Source: a virus (Duplodnaviria; Heunggongvirae; Uroviricota; Caudoviricetes). Taken from it: a stretch of DNA of 9,465 bases. The notes beneath the pieces were generated by a model. That model saw nothing but the letters and a program-made list of their open reading frames with translations. It did not search any database and was not told where the DNA came from. Where the stretch lies: positions 1 to 9,465 of the IMG/VR virus record IMGVR_UViG_2711768056_000002; one strand, given 5' to 3'. Below are positions 1-9,465 of the stretch, in pieces. Every line of letters starts with the position of its first letter. Position 1 is the first letter of the stretch. Made by a program: the position numbers and the translations under genes.

Positions 1-15
1 ATTCAGGGGGCCAGT

Positions 16-591
16 CTACTCACGAATGAGTCTCAATGGTATTCCAGCATAAGATGATGATGGTCTTGATAGTTTTTTACCAACTAATGACTTAGTGCCA
101 ATAATACACCCATATGGTATTACAGAACCTTTGTTTATTGTGACACCTTCACCAACCCACACATGGTCTGAGATAACAATATCTTTTGCGTGATTTATCC
201 TCTCTCCACTTTCAATATCAATAATAGGATGTTCATCTGAAGTTCTAATATAAATAGAACTAGAGAACATGCAATCGTCACCAATTGTAATTGATTTACC
301 TTCCATTGCGAAGAAATGCACACCAGCGGTGGTCGTCCCGCTTCCAATAATTAACTTTGAACTGTTTTGCCGAATATCAATACAGCCTCTTATATTGCTC
401 TTTTTTTTAATATGCAAGGTATTATTCTCACCAATGATGTTTATTCTTAAATTTCTAAGAACTACACCTTCATCTATTGTAATTTTATGCCCGCTACCCT
501 GCACATTAACTTTAACACTTTTGTCAATGAGTACTGATGGATGTATATATATTTCATTACCACTTTCAAATTCACTGAATATATTTTCCAT
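16..591 (-). CDS. Hexapeptide-repeat (left-handed beta-helix) sugar O-acetyltransferase, LacA/Maa/NeuO-like; candidate lysogenic-conversion enzyme
   Basis: 191-codon ORF with ATG at 591..589 on the minus strand; stop codon included at 18..16. Translation shows tandem [LIV]-G-x-x-x-x hexapeptide units (IGDDCMF, HVWVGEGVTINKGSVIPYGCIIGTKSLVG) and a C-terminal ...SSYAGIPLRLIRE that resembles the conserved C-terminus of galactoside/maltose O-acetyltransferases. No obvious hydrophobic transmembrane stretch. AT-rich like the adjacent tailspike gene and on the same strand, about 100 nt downstream of it. Confidence 0.75.
   Translation of the reverse strand: MENIFSEFESGNEIYIHPSVLIDKSVKVNVQGSGHKITIDEGVVLRNLRINIIGENNTLHIKKKSNIRGCIDIRQNSSKLIIGSGTTTAGVHFFAMEGKSITIGDDCMFSSSIYIRTSDEHPIIDIESGERINHAKDIVISDHVWVGEGVTINKGSVIPYGCIIGTKSLVGKKLSRPSSSYAGIPLRLIRE
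401..408 (-). repeat. A8 homopolymer tract (T8 on the plus strand) inside the acetyltransferase coding sequence, at codons HIKKKS
   Basis: Plus-strand positions 401-408 read tttttttt, flanked by c and aa. On the coding strand this is cat att aaa aaa aag agc. Confidence 0.9.
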
Positions 592-691
592 AAAAATATT
601 ATCCGCATTACATAAACAGTCATACCAATCGATACAATCTATCTCTGGTAGTATAAACGACCTTCCAATTCCATGGAAGATCCATTACACG

Positions 692-2497
692 TTATAGGTT
701 TTCGAGTTTGTTCAATCTTTGCTCTAACCCCTCTATCCTTGAAAATGCAACATCTATAGCCTTTGTAACAAACGGTATAACCTGTTCGTAGGCAATTGTT
801 TTTACATCGCATCCATTGTTTACTAGATGATCTTGATATATACCACAGTCAATTCCAAGTCGATCAAGTAATTCTTTAACTTGCTGTGCAAGATACCCGG
901 CATGTTCTCTTTTCCTTTTTCTACTGCCATCTTTTTCATGTTGATGAATTCTAGTTTCAAAAATCGGATTGCCATTAGAATCATCACCAATTTTTACATT
1001 GTATTCTTCTATATAATCATCACGAAAATCCCACTTATAAAAATATGGGATTATTCCACGGACGAATGATACAGCAAGTTCTCCGTCTATTATTCGTTTA
1101 TCTGCTTTATCACGCTCATCAGACCGAGTTTGCACCGTACCATATACATAAACTGTCTGAGAAGAATTTCCTAACTGAATCTCATGATCTCCACCAACTC
1201 TGGCACGGTAGCCTAAAGCTACACAATTTAATTTCTCTTTTGCAGGTGTCCCATCAATCAAAAACCTACCAGCTTGATGTCCAAGATATACTAATTGGGT
1301 TCCAGTAGTCTCACTATCTCCTGACGCTGCACCAACAAAAACATTATCACTTCCTGTTGTTAAATTAAAGCCGGAAGCCCTACCAATAAGAACTGAATCG
1401 TTCATTTTTGTTGCTTTATATCCTGCTTGCATCCCACAAAAAACAACACCATTTAATCCATTCTGTGACCATGCAGCTTGATACCCTATAGCAACAATAT
1501 TATTGGGAGATTCCCCATATGAAGACAAACCAAGAGAAGCCTCACGTCCTAGTGCAACGTTTCCAGAACCATCCACATTTCTAAATAAGGCAGAGCGACC
1601 TGCAGCAAGATTATTACCGCCAGTTCCCGTCTCAGCACCAGAGAATGCTCCTATATAGGTATTACCACCACCAGTTGAGTTATTTTGCATTGCTGCTTGA
1701 CCGACAGCAACGTTATCTCTTCCTGTTGTTGTTTGTGACCCAGCATCCGTACCAACTGAAACATTTCTCTCTCCTGATGTTAATAGTTTGCCAGCGTTAT
1801 AACCAACCACTACATTATAACTGCCGGTTTTATAGTTGGCATAAGAAGAACTTTGAGCGTAAATAAAAATATTATAACTACCTGTAGTTAACAGTGCTCC
1901 AGCCTCATGTCCAAGTAGAACATTGCGCTGTCCTGTTGTAAGGCTTGCACCGGCTCGTCTACCAATACCAGTATTTTCCGCACCAACAGCCTCATCTGAC
2001 TCGTTACCTATAATTGATGATCCTGCTCCAACTCCGAAAAAAGCATTATTTTTCGCATATTCATTAGAAGAAAATGCATCAATTCCCCATACCGTATTAC
2101 TTGGGTCAGCATAACCAGGCGAATTTTCACCAGAAAAATTGGTTAATTCCTGCCTTAACTGATCTGGAGCATATTTCATTACATTTGGGAAATAGTGCTG
2201 CTGAGAGCCATACGCATCAAAAATCGCCATTGAGTGATTTTTTATAGTCGCAAACTTACCGAATTGACCATTCAATACAGGTTGTCCAGCTTGACTTATT
2301 TTTATTGGTTGAGAAACCTTAATATATTTTCCATTCTCATTCTCAAAATAAACATCCACTTGATTATCTGGATTAGTCGGATCGGTATCAGGCTTCCCGA
2401 TATAAATGCTTCCATTCGATACTGATTTAAATGTTCTTGACATTGTGAACAATTGATTAGGCATGGAAACTATAATGTTAGGTATAATGTCTGTCAT
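692..2497 (-). CDS. Tailspike / tail fibre protein with P22-type N-terminal head-binding domain, glycine-rich repeat shaft and C-terminal intramolecular chaperone (peptidase S74-like) domain
   Basis: 601-codon ORF, ATG at 2497..2495 preceded by GGAG about 10 nt upstream on the minus strand; stop TAA at 694..692. The N-terminal ~110 aa (MTDIIPNIIVSMPNQLFTMSRTFKSVSNGSIYIGKPDTDPTNPDNQVDVYFENENG...HSMAIFDAYGSQQHYFPNV) closely resemble the P22 tailspike head-binding domain as I recall it. The middle carries degenerate N-[VI]-x-[VIL]-G-x-x-A-G-x-x-x-T-T-G repeats. The C-terminal ~143 aa begin SDERDK and end ...RIEGLEQRLNKLENL, matching the self-cleaving chaperone domains of endosialidase and T5 pb1-type fibres. 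Confidence 0.9.
   Translation of the reverse strand: MTDIIPNIIVSMPNQLFTMSRTFKSVSNGSIYIGKPDTDPTNPDNQVDVYFENENGKYIKVSQPIKISQAGQPVLNGQFGKFATIKNHSMAIFDAYGSQQHYFPNVMKYAPDQLRQELTNFSGENSPGYADPSNTVWGIDAFSSNEYAKNNAFFGVGAGSSIIGNESDEAVGAENTGIGRRAGASLTTGQRNVLLGHEAGALLTTGSYNIFIYAQSSSYANYKTGSYNVVVGYNAGKLLTSGERNVSVGTDAGSQTTTGRDNVAVGQAAMQNNSTGGGNTYIGAFSGAETGTGGNNLAAGRSALFRNVDGSGNVALGREASLGLSSYGESPNNIVAIGYQAAWSQNGLNGVVFCGMQAGYKATKMNDSVLIGRASGFNLTTGSDNVFVGAASGDSETTGTQLVYLGHQAGRFLIDGTPAKEKLNCVALGYRARVGGDHEIQLGNSSQTVYVYGTVQTRSDERDKADKRIIDGELAVSFVRGIIPYFYKWDFRDDYIEEYNVKIGDDSNGNPIFETRIHQHEKDGSRKRKREHAGYLAQQVKELLDRLGIDCGIYQDHLVNNGCDVKTIAYEQVIPFVTKAIDVAFSRIEGLEQRLNKLENL
695..1123 (-). other. Tailspike C-terminal intramolecular chaperone / autoproteolytic domain (peptidase S74-like); predicted self-cleavage immediately before Ser459
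   Basis: Residues 459-601. Ser459 is encoded by the minus-strand codon at 1123..1121, verified as revcomp aga = tct, followed by D-E-R-D-K. The S-D-x-R-x-K start and the helical, Leu-rich C-terminus are characteristic of this domain family. The call is from recalled motifs, not a profile search. Confidence 0.6.
2168..2497 (-). other. Tailspike N-terminal head-binding (particle-attachment) domain, P22 type
   Basis: Residues 1 to about 110 of the tailspike ORF; estimated ~60% identity by eye to the P22 tailspike N-terminus recalled from memory. The domain boundary is approximate. Confidence 0.75.
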
Positions 2498-2661
2498 TTA
2501 ATTTGCTCCAGACGTAGCAATGCCGAACAAGATGCAACTTGCCCTGCATTGCACTAATGTCAGTTATGATTTGTTAATTATGAGATGAGTCTATGCAAAG
2601 AGATCTGTTGAATATTGCGCTCTATATATTTGGTTTTTGCACGTTCCTGGTGTTTGCGAAG
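2498..2661 (-). promoter_or_regulatory. 164-bp spacer between the gp16-like and tailspike genes; contains the tailspike ribosome-binding site and possibly a promoter or attenuating hairpin
   Basis: This is the only non-coding gap longer than 100 bp inside the structural block. GGAG lies upstream of the tailspike ATG. A 7-bp inverted repeat, gcaatgc at 2517-2523 and gcattgc at 2546-2552, flanks a 22-nt spacer. I could not identify a convincing sigma70 -35/-10 pair by eye. Confidence 0.3.
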
Positions 2662-4659
2662 CTATTCTGACAACGCATCAGACTTAGCCCCCTGCGTCAG
2701 AGCGTTAATTGCCTTTTGTGCCTGCTGCATTGCTTTCTCAAAGGCTGTTGATCCGCGTGGGGTATTTGCCATTCGGAGCATTGCATTTCTGAATGGTTCT
2801 CTCTCATAGGCGCGAGTAAGAAGTCCGTAGCTTACTGCTGCGCCAGTTGTCGCCGGGTTCATTGCCGTCCCATACCCGATAATGAACGGGATGGTTTGCT
2901 GCCCTGTTGGTGTTGTTACTGCCGCTTTTGCTGCCTGCTGAGTGGACTGAAGGTAATTTTTCAATCCTTTCAGATAAGCAGCGTCCTGCCCCTTAAATGT
3001 GATGCCAGTCTGGCTTTGCAGGATGTTAAGCTGTCGAAGGAACTGGTCAGGGGATCCACCTGATTTCTCCATCGCCTTTCCAATGATGCCATTGCGCATT
3101 TGCGCCCTGCCAACACGACCAACTGAGTTATACAGCGTCTTAATTTCCGATTTGTTCTTGCTGAATAGCATGTTGTTGACAACTTCCGGCGTCAGATCGC
3201 CTTTCATGAGAACATTCTTCAGCCTGGTATTCTTTAGTTTCGCGGCTTCGTCAGCGTAGACGGCATTGGCCTGCTGATATTTACGGAGAGTATCGTTGCC
3301 AAGATTCTGACCAATGGCACCATTGATATCGTCGGTCATTGCCTTGTAAACGCGCTGAATTGCAGCATCGGAACGGTTTGGTAACACTGGTCGCTCACCC
3401 TTCACGTCCATTCTGAACTGGCTGCGCAGATCGCTTAATTGCTTCAAATCCAGATTTACCGGACCATCAGGACCAGCATTGCGAACAAGCTCATCACGAT
3501 AGGACTGAAGTTTTGAAATAGTCTCGTTATCAGCAACCTTACCAAGCTTCTGCAGGTTAGATATTTCTGTATCAATCTGCTGAATTGCTCTTGCAGGCTG
3601 AATGTTTATTCCCGCCATAGCATTCTGAACCTGCTCCAGTCGATTTCCTGCAGCGCGACGAATTCCTGATGTTTTCGCTTTAAGGCTGTCAATAACAACC
3701 GCTGGATCATACTCACCGAATTTATCAGCAAATCTCTGAACCAACTGGCTTCTCGCTTCCTGTTGCGTTGCTCTCATTCCGCTTGTGCCCGCCAGGGGGA
3801 TATTTTCTGCTGTCGTTTGCGCCATTTTTCCGACGCGGGAAGTAGGCTGTAACAGGTCTGTGGTGTGCAGAGGCACTCCTTCACGCTCTGCAAATCTGAT
3901 AGCTTGCTGCGCTTCTGGCGCAATAGCACCACGAACTCCACGATAAGCAGCACCTAATCCACGTCCGGCAGCGTTAATAGCACCGCCAGCCAGCACACCA
4001 ACGCCCAAATCGGTGGCGAGTGCTTCCGCATCATCTTTCGCACTATTTGCAGCAAGTGATCCAACTGCGTTTTCTGCTAGAAGGCGAGTTGCCCCATGAG
4101 CAATTCGACCAGCAAGTGTTGGTGCCTGTGCTGCCGCTCTCTCAACGCCAGCAGGAGTGAGGTAAGGCAATGCTTCAGCAAATACCCTTCCCTCTGTCGT
4201 TTGTGGAGTCAGCGCGCCTTGCTGAAGGCCAAAGTCCTGCTCTAATCCCTGCGTTGTTACACGTGGCGCTGGTTGATATGTACCATCGCCAATGCCGAGT
4301 TTACCGCCAGCCCAAGCCGCCGCGCTTGTTACAGCATCGGCAACTGATGCAGGTATGTTTGCCACGTTCACGCCAGCCTGCACCAGTCCGCGACCAGTCT
4401 CTTTTACTGCTTCGCCAAGATCAGACATAAATCCACTTTGCTGTGGTTGTTGCTGTGCTACTGGTTGCTGTGTCTCCACTTGCTGCACATATGGCAATGG
4501 ATAGGCAGCATAGAAAGCTTGCTTAGCCTGCTCTGCATTTTCTCCGGCTTGCGGGGCAACGACTTCATTGAAGTATTGCTCCTGAGCCTGCGCTTTTTGT
4601 TCTGGTGCTAACGCCTGATACTGTGGAGAGGCGATAACATCTTTCCATGCTTTAGCCAT
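2662..4659 (-). CDS. Ejection (E) protein, P22 gp16-like
   Basis: 665-codon ORF, ATG at 4659..4657 overlapping the stop of the upstream gene (minus strand reads TAATG), with a GGGGTGA ribosome-binding site. The N-terminus MAKAWKDVIASPQYQALAPEQKAQAQEQYF... matches my recollection of P22 gp16. It sits in the gp16 position, last of the three E proteins before the tailspike. Confidence 0.85.
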   Translation of the reverse strand: MAKAWKDVIASPQYQALAPEQKAQAQEQYFNEVVAPQAGENAEQAKQAFYAAYPLPYVQQVETQQPVAQQQPQQSGFMSDLGEAVKETGRGLVQAGVNVANIPASVADAVTSAAAWAGGKLGIGDGTYQPAPRVTTQGLEQDFGLQQGALTPQTTEGRVFAEALPYLTPAGVERAAAQAPTLAGRIAHGATRLLAENAVGSLAANSAKDDAEALATDLGVGVLAGGAINAAGRGLGAAYRGVRGAIAPEAQQAIRFAEREGVPLHTTDLLQPTSRVGKMAQTTAENIPLAGTSGMRATQQEARSQLVQRFADKFGEYDPAVVIDSLKAKTSGIRRAAGNRLEQVQNAMAGINIQPARAIQQIDTEISNLQKLGKVADNETISKLQSYRDELVRNAGPDGPVNLDLKQLSDLRSQFRMDVKGERPVLPNRSDAAIQRVYKAMTDDINGAIGQNLGNDTLRKYQQANAVYADEAAKLKNTRLKNVLMKGDLTPEVVNNMLFSKNKSEIKTLYNSVGRVGRAQMRNGIIGKAMEKSGGSPDQFLRQLNILQSQTGITFKGQDAAYLKGLKNYLQSTQQAAKAAVTTPTGQQTIPFIIGYGTAMNPATTGAAVSYGLLTRAYEREPFRNAMLRMANTPRGSTAFEKAMQQAQKAINALTQGAKSDALSE

Positions 4660-5954
4660 TAATCACCCCATAGTGAAGAAAAGTTACTGCCAGTAGTAGA
4701 TTGTTGCCCTGGCGTATTCTGTACTGGCTCCTGATAATCAAACTGTTTTTTAACAGTGCTCAACTTGCTTTCAAGCTGATTTCGAATCTTTCCGATAGAG
4801 TCACGAAAAGCCTTTTCACTCATTTTGGGACTTAGAGCACCAACCGCATCAGATAATTTTTTACCCTCAGCATCTGAAAGAGCCCCCATCCCCTTCAGGG
4901 ACTGCACCATAGGGAGGAAAGTTTGAGCTTTAAAGGTGTCGAGTCTTGCTTCAAAGTTAGCCGCATCAGAGCCAGGAACTGTCGGAAACGCTGAGCGAAT
5001 TCCTACTGCTTTTGAAAGGCCGGGGCTTTGCTCTATCTCGTTGAGAGAATCAAGCGCGGTGCTGAACGTATCAACTGCACCCTGAGCGGCGGCCTGCCTG
5101 TCAGCGCGGGCTATGTCAGCCTTTTGCCGAACATCTGCCTGTTTCTGTTTTAGCTCTTCGAGCTTTAACTGATTGCTTTCTCTGGCTATCTGTCTGTCCA
5201 GAGCCTTTTCTTGTAATTCTGCTCTTTGTATTTCTCGGGAAAGAGCAGCATTCTGTGCGCTGATGTTCTGTCCACGTATCTGGATGTCCTGACCTCGAGC
5301 TGTTAGTGCTTCTCCTGCCTGATTGCTGCGGATTGTCTCTGCCAGCCTGTCTCGGTCAATCTCACGACCAGCCATCTTGTCCTGAACATTGAAGTAATCA
5401 ATCGGACCAAGCGCAGCCATCCCAAGGTGATCAACAAACTCACCAAATCCTGAAGGATTCTGCTGATACATCTGAGCAACGTTGTTAGGGTCAACACCGA
5501 CGCGATTCAGTTCCTTGGCGTTGTTTTGCAGCCATGATTGCATTGCTTCTGGAGACGAGGCAGCAAGGCGTGCGCCAGCCGCTAAGGTGCCGATAGAATT
5601 GCGCTGGTCTTCATCAATGAACCCCATGCCTTTACGAATAGATTCAATCTGGTCTGGATATTGAGTAGCCAACTGACGCAAAGCTCCGCGATCACCAGAC
5701 GCATAAGCATTAGCGTATGCCTGCTGAAATTCTTTCTGCCGCTGAGCCTGCTTTTCCTGATGAAAAACACCCGCAATACCTGAAAGACCTTGCAAAGCAG
5801 TCAGCCCAACATTGTTAGCACCTGAACGCTCAATATCATTGTTCTGCCTGATAAGCTGAAGCGTATTGCCGATGTCATTTACGTTCGGAGCGTTTGAGTT
5901 GACACCACCGATACCAGCCAACAATCCGCCATTTGTTCCTTGCCAAGTAGCCAT
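4659..5954 (-). CDS. Ejection (E) protein, P22 gp20-like
   Basis: 431-codon ORF, ATG at 5954..5952 preceded by AAGGGG on the minus strand; stop TAA at 4661..4659. N-terminus MATWQGTNGGLLAGIGGVNSNAPNVND...; central Gln/Arg/Glu-rich predicted coiled coil. Position between the gp7-like and gp16-like genes. Confidence 0.8.
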   Translation of the reverse strand: MATWQGTNGGLLAGIGGVNSNAPNVNDIGNTLQLIRQNNDIERSGANNVGLTALQGLSGIAGVFHQEKQAQRQKEFQQAYANAYASGDRGALRQLATQYPDQIESIRKGMGFIDEDQRNSIGTLAAGARLAASSPEAMQSWLQNNAKELNRVGVDPNNVAQMYQQNPSGFGEFVDHLGMAALGPIDYFNVQDKMAGREIDRDRLAETIRSNQAGEALTARGQDIQIRGQNISAQNAALSREIQRAELQEKALDRQIARESNQLKLEELKQKQADVRQKADIARADRQAAAQGAVDTFSTALDSLNEIEQSPGLSKAVGIRSAFPTVPGSDAANFEARLDTFKAQTFLPMVQSLKGMGALSDAEGKKLSDAVGALSPKMSEKAFRDSIGKIRNQLESKLSTVKKQFDYQEPVQNTPGQQSTTGSNFSSLWGD

Positions 5955-5963
5955 GATTACCCC

Positions 5964-6659
5964 TTAAAACAACGATCCAAGCAGGCCAAGTCCGCCGCCA
6001 ATTGCCGCACCTAATCCAGTGCCAAGTCCTGGAACAATAGAGCCAAGAGCAGCGCCAGTCATAGCCCCTGAAGCTCCGCCACTAATTGCTGTCTGAAGAC
6101 CTGATGGTTTATTGGCATTAGCAGCGGCAAGAGCCGCACTTTGCTGCGAAATCTGACTCATGTTGTTGGCATATGTCTGCCCGGCGTTTGCCTGACCTTG
6201 CAGTGCGCCAAGACCAATATTTGCCAGATTCTGGTAGTTGTTCATCTGACCAGACAGCCACTGCTGACCAAGCGTTGGTGCGATTGTTGCTAACTGATTA
6301 CCGGTTGCAGTGGAACCCAATCCACCTGTTGCTTCCGCTGCCGCCAGACTCTGATAGCGAGCCTGACCAGCAAGATCTTTGTACTGCTGAGAGTTGTAAT
6401 ACTGGTTAAGTGCCTGACCTTGCCCCTGAAGAGAGGAAAGATTCTGCAATTGTGATACGTACTGCTGAGCGAGTGGCGTGAACGGAGCAAGGTTTTTCAT
6501 GATCGTCTGCCACTGCTGATTCTGCAGGTCTGCGGCATACTTCTGAGCTTCTGCGGCATACTTTGCGCTTTTATCAGAACTGCCACCTTTCCCACCCTTT
6601 TCAGGGCAATAAGGTTCCTCGCCGCGCAGTTTTCTGCCCAGCTTAAATGCATATAACAT
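5964..6659 (-). CDS. Ejection (E) protein, P22 gp7-like
   Basis: 231-codon ORF, ATG at 6659..6657 preceded by GGGAG; stop TAA at 5966..5964. N-terminus MLYAFKLGRKLRGEEPYCPEKGGKGGSSDKS...; Gln/Asn-rich middle; Gly/Ala/Leu-rich hydrophobic C-terminus. Size close to the 229 aa I recall for P22 gp7. Confidence 0.8.
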   Translation of the reverse strand: MLYAFKLGRKLRGEEPYCPEKGGKGGSSDKSAKYAAEAQKYAADLQNQQWQTIMKNLAPFTPLAQQYVSQLQNLSSLQGQGQALNQYYNSQQYKDLAGQARYQSLAAAEATGGLGSTATGNQLATIAPTLGQQWLSGQMNNYQNLANIGLGALQGQANAGQTYANNMSQISQQSAALAAANANKPSGLQTAISGGASGAMTGAALGSIVPGLGTGLGAAIGGGLGLLGSLF

Positions 6660-6661
6660 GG

Positions 6662-7117
6662 CTATCTCCCGTGATTCAGGAAGTCGATTAGTTCTTCGCG
6701 TGTGGCGCTGTAAAACGTCACGTCATCCACGCCTTTGAAGTATTTTTTGATGGTTCCTACACGATTAAGGCCAATCATTGCGCAGTACATCTGACCGTGG
6801 CGGAATTTGCGTGCAGCGAACGATGTGACGCACTGAACGGTGGTGTTAGTCAGAATGTATCGCCAGAAAGCCAGCCCGATTTCCTTGCTGAATCCGCGAA
6901 TCTCTGGCAGGTACATGGCGTGGCAATCAAAGGTCAGCGGCTGAATCTCCTGATAGTAAACAATTCCGCCGAACTGCCCGTGCACGTTCACCTCAAAGTA
7001 ACGGCATTCAGGCTTGTAGTCGTATCCATCGCCGTTGTTGCTCCCGGCGATAATGTCAGGGTGATTTCCTACTGCTTCGATCAGGTCGATGTTTCGCGTT
7101 GGTTTGAAATGAATCAT
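6662..7117 (-). CDS. P22 gp14-like small late protein (function not well defined)
   Basis: ORF in the gp14 position between the needle and gp7 genes. I place the start at the ATG at 7117..7115, which overlaps the needle stop (minus strand reads TGATG). The ORF track extends one codon further, to a GTG at 7120..7118. Stop TAG at 6664..6662. Assigned mainly by synteny and size. Confidence 0.6.
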   Translation of the reverse strand: MIHFKPTRNIDLIEAVGNHPDIIAGSNNGDGYDYKPECRYFEVNVHGQFGGIVYYQEIQPLTFDCHAMYLPEIRGFSKEIGLAFWRYILTNTTVQCVTSFAARKFRHGQMYCAMIGLNRVGTIKKYFKGVDDVTFYSATREELIDFLNHGR

Positions 7118-8070
7118 CACTGCTCCGCGATTATCTTGATGGTTGTGGCAGTAAACGCCGCACCATTCGACTGAATGGTTAACGTGCTGCCATTTGTGGC
7201 AAGAAAGCCGTCTTTATCCACGCTGAAGAACGTAGCTAACAGGATGTTGTCGGTTGTTGTCGCCGCATTACGACTGCTGACCAACGTGTCAGGAACAGAG
7301 CCGGAAAAGGTTAGCTGCATTGACCTGTTGGCGGTTCCGCTGGGCCACGTCCCGACGATCGACAGCTTGAAGAACAGGGTTTTGTTCTCGTTGAACACAA
7401 CCATCTTGTTGTTAACGGTGTCGAAGAATGGTGCCAATGTGCCGGATGACGGCGTGAGCGTTTTCAGCAGGCTAACAAGGTTGGTCGGCGCTGTCGGGAT
7501 GGTTACAGATACTCCTGAGTAAACAACCTCTGATTTCTTGCGCGTGGTGGCATACTCAAGCGCAGATATTCTTGTTGAGTGATCACCAACTGTGCTTTGT
7601 AGCGTCGAAATACTTCCTTCTGCCGCTGTGAGCCTGGTATCAAGTGCGTCGATATCGGTTGTATTCTGAGTTATGCGCGCATCATGGTTTGCTAACTCAG
7701 ATTCATTGGCAGCAATTCGCGTATCGTGATCAGCCAGCTCTGTTTCAGCAGCCGTAATCCTTGTTTCATGATCTGCAAGAGTGCTTTCCGCTGCTGCAAT
7801 TCTATGTTCATGATTGATGAGAGTTGATTCAGCAGCTTCAATTCTGGATTCATGGTCTGCAAGGGTGACATCCTGCTCATCATTCTTCACCTGTGCATCA
7901 TAAGCCCCCTTCCCTGCTTCGTTGGCCTTGTTAGCCACGTTACCAACATCAGCACCCTGTGCAATAACGTACAGCAGATATGACTGCGAGAAGATATTAC
8001 GCGGAAGGACTGATGTGTCGAGCCGCGTAGCCTGGATGATTACCGGCTCATTGAGATTCGAATCAGCCAT
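7117..8070 (-). CDS. Tail needle (P22 gp26-like) with extended repeat coiled coil and a large C-terminal domain
   Basis: 317-codon ORF, ATG at 8070..8068 overlapping the stop of the gp10-like gene (TAATG); stop TGA at 7119..7117. The N-terminal ~68 aa ([68 protein letters not shown]) closely match the P22 gp26 N-terminus as I recall it. They are followed by heptad-pattern repeats and a ~150-aa Ser/Thr-rich C-terminal region. Confidence 0.9.
7654..7863 (-). repeat. Five tandem degenerate 42-bp repeats encoding 14-residue (double-heptad) units of the tail-needle coiled coil
   Basis: Protein units [14 protein letters not shown] / [14 protein letters not shown] / [14 protein letters not shown] / [14 protein letters not shown] / [14 protein letters not shown]. 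Matching DNA periodicity is visible on the plus strand, e.g. ...tcatg(a/g)tctgcaag(a/g)gt... recurring at about 42-bp spacing between 7680 and 7860. A further weaker unit extends to about 7612. Confidence 0.8.
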
Positions 8071-9464
8071 TACTCAATCCTTATCTGGCAGCCAGACAGA
8101 GTGACAGGTGACTTCGTGATAACGCGCAATTTGAAACCGACATTTTTCCTGATGCGCCCGACACGCTTCCACAAAACGCGTTTGTCGTAAACGAACGGTT
8201 CATTCTGCTCAATCATCTGCTCACGCCCGTAATTGATGCCGTCAGTGGTTGCAGAGAGAAAAAGGCGGTCAGCATACTGCGCAACGCCAGTTGACGACTC
8301 AACCTCAAGGTCGAACACTCTGGCGTTATCCGCTTTGAACAACGGAGTAAACAGCAGGTGTTCCTGTTGAAGACCATACTGACTGCTGATATCGAACTGC
8401 AATTTCCCGGTCACGGACTCCAGCTTATCGCCGCACGTTATCTGATTGCCTTCGTAAATGAAGTCGATAGCGCGGTACACATCGTCATACAAGCCTGTTT
8501 TCAGCACACACCATTGCGGACCATTGGCGCTTGAAGATGCGTCGTACACGAGGACGTGGCGCGGAAGGTGGATAATCAGCAACTCATGAGCATCAAACCG
8601 CAACGATTCCATCACGCCATCAGCCAGTTCATCAGCAGTGTAGGAACGAAGGATTTTCTCAATGCTCGCGCTGGCGATTGGTGATACCTGACCGGATCCG
8701 ATGATGTACACAGACGGCGCACCTGTTGCCGGATTGCTGATGAACGCATACGAATCAGCAAACGGCGTTTTGCAGTAGGTTCCGGCAATACCTTTCTGCA
8801 CCATCAGCGATGGCTGTGCGACATACAAAGCGGCACCAACGGTGGTTGCACCTGTCAGGGAAAAATATTCAATCGTCGATGAACCAAAGCAGACGATGAA
8901 GTCTCGCCATGTCCCGATACCGATGATGCCGTCCGGCTGCGATTCTGCGCGATATTGTGCGCTGTATCGGTCAGGATGCGATTCGTCTCCAAGGTCAGTG
9001 ATAAACCATGAATCCGTGCCGTCTTTTGACCACGCATAACGCCCACGTAAGCGCGTAATGTCACGAACCGAACCTAACTCATACTGCGTGAATCCGCTGT
9101 CTGTAGGCCAGTTTGAGACGGTTTTAACCGTGCCATCATAGCGATACTCGACCAGTTGACCATTAACGCCAACCGCCTGTGATGTTCGACCATGTGCCAT
9201 TGATACGCGACCACTTCCAGCAACATCACCCACTTCACTTTCACCCTTATACAGCTTGCCACCGCACACGCGATAAACAGCATTCTGCGCCATGTTGTAC
9301 TCGACGCCGCGAGATACACCGTTCACATCAGAACGTTTGGCAATGCCCGGGAATGAGCGAAGATATCCGCTGCTGTTAAGGATTTCTTTGGGTGTAGCCA
9401 GCATATTCACTGGCAGATAGTCGATATAGTCGGCGTTTCTAAAGTCTTTGCCGACACCTTTCAT
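8070..9464 (-). CDS. Tail hub / packaged-DNA stabilisation protein, P22 gp10-like; 5' end probably truncated by the window edge
   Basis: 464-codon ORF running to the last full codon of the window; stop TAA at 8072..8070. Translation from the in-window ATG at 9464..9462 begins [44 protein letters not shown]... and ends ...[17 protein letters not shown], matching my recollection of P22 gp10 throughout. P22 gp10 is slightly longer, so the true start is probably a few codons beyond position 9465. Confidence 0.88.
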
Positions 9465-9465
9465 A

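Follow-up and report, generated by a model that had tools for sequence, protein, structure and literature searches.

The tail needle gene of a P22-like prophage raises the question of how the needle ends: in a globular knob like that of Sf6, in a short tip like that of P22, or in a coiled coil running to the C-terminus. It was followed up here in the window, i.e. the whole analysed stretch of 9,465 nucleotides (IMG/VR virus record IMGVR_UViG_2711768056_000002, positions 1 to 9,465; Caudoviricetes). An earlier note, made from the letters of this DNA alone, had proposed a globular, β-rich tip of the Sf6 type for the last ~150 residues of the needle. The segment 7120-7554 almost certainly encodes the HS1/Sf6-type needle knob of a P22-like (Lederbergvirus, Sf6-like) E. 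coli prophage, and the needle would work as in P22, Sf6 and HS1.

The needle gene and its shaft

The tail needle gene, a homologue of P22 gp26 and Sf6 gp9, is found on the minus strand at 7117..8070 (317 aa; TGA stop at 7117-7119, minus strand; both from the ORF list). It is 100% identical to a gene of E. coli CM2 whose product carries the RefSeq name 'tail needle knob protein' (WP_053287814.1). The protein consists of three parts, all encoded on the minus strand. The N-terminal domain (residues 1-60; 7891..8070) was matched from residue 1 by 2POH, 3C9I, 5BU5, 4LIN and 8EAP in a phmmer search of the PDB with E-values of 1e-27 to 3e-49, and PHROG 1219 ('tail needle protein') spans residues 1-111. 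It is followed by a coiled-coil shaft of 16 heptads (residues 61-172; 7555..7890), delimited by register analysis and shuffle statistics, and by the Sf6-type knob (residues 173-317; 7120..7554), delimited with the PDB, PF16532, PHROG 1030, AlphaFold2 and Foldseek. A gp26-type N-terminal domain joined to a heptad-repeat coiled coil characterises the family of P22-like needles. The segment 7120-7560, to which the earlier note referred, corresponds exactly to residues 171-317 (L171 to Q317).

The first claim to be checked was that this C-terminal part is rich in Ser and Thr and devoid of a heptad pattern, and it held. Ser and Thr account for 40 of the 147 residues at positions 171-317 (27.2%; Thr 16.3%, Ser 10.9%) compared to 12.6% in the other seven proteins of the window when pooled (binomial p = 1.5e-6), and the peptide cited in the note is located in this part. 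Within the shaft, Leu, Ile, Val or Met occupy 15 of the 16 'a' positions (94%) in one register, which none of 2000 shuffles matched, and the Fourier power at periods 7 and 3.5 was likewise equalled in 0/2000 shuffles. On residues 173-317, no register or period exceeded the shuffles (best register 0.33, shuffle mean 0.36). As the heptad signal extends up to residue 172 and none was detected beyond it, the boundary is real and lies where it had been placed before. L171 is the final core position of the coiled coil; in the AlphaFold2 model, the helix reaches residue 175 and the first strand starts at 179. Charged residues (Asp, Glu, Lys, Arg) drop from 28% in the shaft to 14% in residues 171-317. 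Since the coiled coil is itself fairly rich in Ser and Thr (22%), the contrast between coil and knob is more a loss of periodicity and charge, together with a gain of Phe, Pro and Gly, than a matter of Ser/Thr alone.

The 'a' positions of the shaft are Leu, Ile or Val, while its 'd' positions alternate His or Asn with Ala or Leu (H73, A80, H87, A94, H101, A108, H115, N122, H129 and so on). This reads as a repeat of 14 residues, DHxxRIxAAExxLx, with histidines stacked in the trimer core. Tandem Repeats Finder detected no DNA tandem repeats in 7100-8100 beneath this 14-residue period and therefore, the repeat is kept at protein level only.

Directly upstream of the needle lies the gene of a gp10-like tail hub (8070..9464, minus strand; PF11134, Phage_stabilise, E 2.6e-295), the stop codon of which overlaps the needle start (ATGA). 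Directly downstream, a gp14-like DUF2824 gene (6662..7117, minus strand; PF11039, E 1.1e-52) overlaps the needle stop with its ATG by one base (TGATG). Pfam matches to PF25688 and PF16928 were also obtained downstream of the needle. Homologues of gp7, gp20 and gp16 follow after gp14, and then the tailspike; the gp16 homologue was called from its position and its nucleotide similarity to Sf6. The needle thus stands between gp10 and gp14 homologues in the order known from Sf6 and HS1, as is typical of P22-like late operons, and terminase, portal, scaffold, coat and gp4 genes belong to the same operon according to the RefSeq context. The window represents the distal end of the prophage. It shares 99.9% identity with a region of E. 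coli CM2 (NZ_CP158308) that adjoins torT, and its part 2397-9465 shares 93.5% DNA identity with Sf6.

The ejection protein at the gp16 position (2662-4659, minus strand; 665 aa) is named 'lytic transglycosylase domain-containing protein' in RefSeq and had no Pfam match at E ≤ 0.001. The 164 bp at 2498-2661 separate its gene from the tailspike gene, as in Sf6. NCBIfam gave nothing but sub-threshold coiled-coil noise for the needle (SMC, PspA), with no model of that library reaching its cut-off, and Rfam gave zero matches in the window. Between 6600 and 8200, no terminator-like sites and one promoter-like site were found, the latter below the shuffle expectation. The plus-strand ORFs 7175-7522 and 6797-7174, which overlap the needle gene, had no Pfam match and were treated as mechanical antisense ORFs.

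Identity and ligand sites of the knob

Residues 165-317 were compared with the PDB by phmmer. They are identical to the HS1 knob (4K6B) at 151 of 153 positions (E 3e-90) and to the Sf6 knob (3RWN) at 149 of 153 (E 2e-89). The Pfam family PF16532 (Phage_tail_NK, Sf6-type phage tail needle knob) was matched over model positions 1-175 of 175 with 358.1 bits (E 8.6e-108), its gathering score being 27, and PHROG 1030 ('tail needle knob') matched the needle with an E-value of 1.4e-135. For structure prediction, residues 150-317 were modelled as a monomer with AlphaFold2, template-free and from an alignment with 35 homologues down to 48% identity. The model has a pLDDT of 93.4 and a pTM of 0.83, with a helix at 151-175 and exclusively β-structure past residue 178. 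In Foldseek, its best matches were 3RWN and 4K6B (E 2e-27, TM 0.92, rmsd 1.9 Å), followed by PRD1 P5, EDA, TNF, C1q and BclA. The knob is accordingly modelled as a TNF-like jellyroll of antiparallel strands behind the coiled coil. The profile and structure comparison with the Sf6 knob, as it had been suggested, therefore agrees with a globular β-rich tip instead of the P22-type one; neither a continuous coiled coil nor a lack of similarity to knob domains was encountered, and no evidence argues against the identification.

The closest characterised relative is the needle of HS1, a prophage of E. coli HS (EcHS_A0316, NC_009800 320115-321068), which likewise has 317 residues and a 16-heptad shaft; the shafts of Sf6 and P22 have 11 heptads each (Leavitt et al. 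2013, PMC3741392). Both needles are identical at 307 of 317 positions (97%) without gaps. Nine of the ten substitutions fall into the N-terminal domain and the shaft, and the knob differs by S269A only. The gene order gp10 - needle - gp14 - gp7 - gp20 - gp16 is also the same. The prophages differ in other respects: HS1 is integrated at tRNA-Thr near proA, contains an immI-like region and has another tailspike, whereas the prophage of the window adjoins torT, has no immI genes and carries a tailspike with an S74 chaperone domain. Sf6 gp9, the needle of a Shigella phage, shows the same three-part architecture and a knob that differs at 2 of 147 positions (S269A and S305A in window numbering). 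With 282 aa and 11 heptads it is shorter; the shaft in the window is longer by 35 residues (14+14+7, five heptads) and divergent in sequence, and the overall identity is 79% with gaps included. Judged from these alignments, the needle can be considered as the HS1-type long form with an Sf6-type knob at its tip.

In HS1, bound L-glutamate is contacted by E181, K235, S283, D285, L290 and K312 (Leavitt et al. 2013, PMC3741392). All six residues are kept at identical positions in the needle, namely, E181 (codon 7528..7530), K235 (7366-7368), S283 (7222-7224), D285 (7216-7218), L290 (7201-7203) and K312 (7135-7137), all on the minus strand. The same applies to the triad S266-R267-N268 (7267..7275, minus strand), which binds phosphate where the 3-fold axis passes through the distal tip. 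Beside this triad, the window has Ala at residue 269 where HS1 and Sf6 have Ser; A269 is shared by further database members, e.g. P0007. In an alignment of 36 sequences down to 48% identity, E181 and K235 never vary, and R267 and S283 hardly ever do. By analogy with the 1.1 Å structure of HS1, a 99%-identical domain, the knob would be a homotrimer with three L-glutamates and one phosphate.

P22 gp26 and HK620 gp26 (2POH, 3C9I, 5BU5) have a homologous plug and proximal coil (residues 1 to ~140, E 1e-41 to 1e-44) and share gene position and channel-plug role with the needle of the window. Their tip (P22 gp26 residues 141-233) is unrelated and smaller, and has no detectable similarity to residues 173-317. 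Neither phmmer nor BLASTP revealed similarity of the needle C-terminus to the P22-, HK620- or epsilon34-type tips (subtypes A-C). HK620 had been listed as a carrier of the knob in the earlier note, which proved wrong: its needle has a P22-type tip of subtype A (Leavitt et al. 2013, PMC3741392), and the match of HK620 DNA to the gene is confined to the 5' 200 bases. The P22-type tip is regarded as ancestral and diverse, whereas the Sf6-type knob hardly varies and is seen as a recent import (Leavitt et al. 2013, PMC3741392).

These comparisons leave hardly any probability for a C-terminus that prolongs the coiled coil or forms a short P22-type tip (an inverted coiled coil plus triple β-helix) with an incidental Ser/Thr content. 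Such a reading draws on the P22 gp26-like N-terminal two fifths of the needle and on nothing else, but the chains of P22, HK620 and other gp26 proteins in the PDB reach only residues 1 to ~146 (phmmer; repeat-on-repeat coil matches beyond about residue 146 were set aside), an HK620-type needle aligns with residues 1-98 only (BLASTP), the heptad signal ceases after residue 172, and the model is all-β with a pLDDT above 90. It is also very unlikely that the prophage is defective and its needle gene a remnant in decay that no longer yields a functional needle. Remnants of this kind are common, as more than 100 E. coli genomes contain a small P22-like remnant including an Sf6-type needle gene (Leavitt et al. 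2013, PMC3741392) and many database members are truncated to 95-200 aa. The ORF in the window, however, is full-length at 317 aa and has kept every ligand and core residue, it stands in an unbroken run of intact late genes from terminase to tailspike, and it overlaps its neighbours at the start and stop codons, which is also seen in active phages. An intact needle with an HS1/Sf6-type knob is thus the preferred reading.

Proposed role of the knob in infection

The mechanism proposed for this needle is carried over from the literature on its close homologues in P22, Sf6 and HS1. The plug role, the TNF-like trimer and the bound glutamate are taken from Leavitt et al. 2013 (PMC3741392); PMC9728967 shows where the needle sits in the Sf6 virion and also describes the plug role. 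Three chains would form one needle, the N-termini of which plug the channel of the gp10 tail hub and retain the DNA within the head. Its shaft would project about 210 Å past the tailspikes, and at the distal tip three C-terminal jellyrolls would pack as a TNF-like trimer of ~45 Å, with one L-glutamate buried at every interface between subunits and a phosphate sitting on the 3-fold axis. Once the tailspikes bind O-antigen and lower the tail, the knob would meet the outer membrane. The needle would then be expelled, and the channel would open for the ejection proteins (homologues of gp7, gp20 and gp16) and the DNA; with the needle lost, the ejection proteins would form the DNA conduit. The knob would adjust how fast ejection proceeds, acting either mechanically, by punching a hole of defined diameter, or as one trigger among several. 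The needle tip had been described as the first part of the virion to contact the cell envelope. This has to be modified, given that initial attachment is brought about by the tailspikes on O-antigen and the needle touches the surface at the same oblique-binding stage.

Among TNF-like jellyrolls, PRD1 spike protein P5, TNF/EDA, the globular head of C1q and Bacillus BclA/ExsFA belong to the same fold class as the knob and also form the distal domain of a trimeric fibre (Foldseek probability 1.0, TM 0.5-0.6, identity 6-18%). The adenovirus fibre knob has been likened to the needle knob in the literature as well. Receptor binding is shown for the class of PRD1 P5, TNF/EDA, C1q and BclA/ExsFA and not for the needle knob, while the buried L-glutamate is peculiar to the needle-knob family.

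The fold class nevertheless suggests another reading, in which the knob binds a host-specific secondary receptor, e.g. an outer-membrane protein, is co-adapted with the tailspike and makes up a unit distinct from P22. Proteins such as TNF, the adenovirus fibre knob, PRD1 P5 and C1q typically bind receptors; in addition, no Salmonella P22-like phage with a knob was known in 2013, which was taken to suggest a selective disadvantage, and a specific role in Shigella infection by Sf6 was left possible (Leavitt et al. 2013, PMC3741392). The published genetics speak against it. On Salmonella, P22 hybrids bearing HS1 codons 174-317, which encode the HS1 knob, or the knob of Sf6 reach normal titres and are normally infectious, and the one with the HS1 knob differs only in releasing K+ at 40-70% of the wild-type rate; phages with a foldon-tipped needle are viable, and mutants of the glutamate site have no phenotype (Leavitt et al. 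2013, PMC3741392). All host-range expansion mutants of Sf6 map to the tailspike. Moreover, needles of both kinds, knobless with 233 aa and knob-bearing with 317 aa, accompany a near-identical tailspike, and the annotated knobs now include one from Salmonella enterica subsp. salamae with 97% identity. A receptor-binding knob is therefore considered unlikely, and by analogy with these phages the knob of the window would not be a host-range determinant. The functional weight that had been implied for the knob also appears too high, since exchanging it in P22 changes K+-release kinetics only.

It is about as improbable that in Escherichia and relatives the knob serves to bind a specific ligand or the envelope, with the buried L-glutamate and the phosphate site at the tip being important for this. 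If true, it would explain the spread of a nearly invariant knob to ~15% of E. coli genomes and many myoviruses, and the occurrence of the knob or the HK620-type tip with the same tailspike would reflect adaptation to different envelope types. The window adds no evidence for such a role beyond that from Sf6 and HS1; its only local peculiarity is S269A, which is shared elsewhere.

Distribution of the knob and mixing of tail modules

Knob DNA with at least 90% identity is present in 821 of 5,426 complete E. coli genomes (about 15%), and the full-length long needle form in 164 of them. Homologues of the knob with 37-57% identity were found in 275 further phage records, mostly of large myoviruses, as reported before on a smaller scale (Leavitt et al. 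2013, PMC3741392). A homologous C-terminal domain occurs in T4-like and ~150-160 kb myoviruses of Salmonella, Dickeya and Klebsiella and in Aeromonas/Vibrio phages. In all these phages it is not joined to a gp26-type needle; its glutamate contacts are reported as conserved, and these proteins are a possible source of the needle knob domain (Leavitt et al. 2013, PMC3741392). Knobs on needles were limited to Escherichia and Shigella in 2013, with a divergence of ≤4.9% (Leavitt et al. 2013, PMC3741392). Members with 70-82% identity are now annotated from Enterobacter, Citrobacter, Serratia, Salmonella and Yersinia, besides the above-mentioned one from subsp. salamae, and going by these annotated sequences (P0052, P0065-P0089) the knob-on-needle family is wider than described at that time. 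In some distant homologues, Glu replaces the contact residue Asp285 within the motif SVEEGD.

The knob itself is already known: two crystal structures have been solved, Pfam has a family for it, RefSeq names the gene product after it, and swap genetics have been published. The copy in the window, common in E. coli, is nothing unusual. The annotation as HS1-type long tail needle with Sf6-type knob can be regarded as settled, and the deduction of a non-helical globular tip from sequence alone was sound.

The tailspike (692-2497, minus strand; 601 aa) is chimeric. Its residues 1-113 match the head-binding domain PF09008 (E 1.5e-50), and its N-terminus also matches Sf6 gp14 residues 1-121 (E 3e-46). 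At the C-terminus, Peptidase_S74 scored 24.1 bits against a cut-off of 22 bits, with no single stretch passing (sub-threshold domain E-value). The body is rich in Gly and Asn and repeat-like. Its nearest phage relatives, with 33-37% identity, are from an Aeromonas phage and Bacillus SPO1-like phages, and it has no relative of solved structure detectable by sequence. The tailspike had been called foreign, which applies to this unusual body; the head-binding domain is of the P22 family. The claim of an adsorption and penetration apparatus wholly different from that of P22 can hence not be upheld. The gp10 hub, the needle plug, the ejection proteins and the head-binding domain of the tailspike all belong to the P22 family, and within the tail apparatus only the tailspike body and the needle tip appear to differ from P22.

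Just past the tailspike and next to torT, the last prophage gene encodes a hexapeptide-repeat acyltransferase (16-591, minus strand; 191 aa). Its similarity to the LPS O-acetyltransferase WbbJ, WcaF and sugar O-acetyltransferases is weak and stays below curated cut-offs. Tailspike and acyltransferase occur in 7 of 5,426 complete E. coli genomes and, because they are linked in all seven, the acyltransferase gene may serve lysogenic conversion (O-antigen modification) and move along with the tailspike. Bases 1-18 of the window align neither to E. coli CM2 nor to six other genomes with the tailspike module, the matches starting at 19; the strain of the window thus differs slightly at the end of the acyltransferase gene or at the prophage junction.

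Five prophages share the tailspike module with at least 99.1% DNA identity over window positions 19-2150 (the protein was compared in one case). The knob needle of 317 aa is present in three of them (CM2, WWCOL-236 and NMBU_W05E18). In the other two, from E. coli 30345_1#247 and EC5931, the needle is knobless, has 233 aa and belongs to the HK620 type, with 600 of 601 tailspike residues identical in the one protein compared. The 233-aa needle (WP_346714477.1; L007:534-1235 and L009:18272-18973) matches 5BU5 with an E-value of 1e-131 and shares only residues 1-98 with the needle of the window. Co-adaptation of needle type or length with the tailspike was considered and rejected on these numbers. 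As the same tailspike is found with either needle type, the two distal modules, tailspike body and needle tip, are not an obligate pair and assort independently, as expected for mosaic P22-like phages. A rare tailspike that occurs naturally with either needle tip also offers a ready-made comparison for knob function. At the position of the 164-bp gap between gp16 and tailspike, other prophages with the same tailspike (L004-L006 and L009) carry an immI-like cluster with Arc-family repressors and an antirepressor, accompanied in one case by a YafO toxin and a ClpP-like gene.
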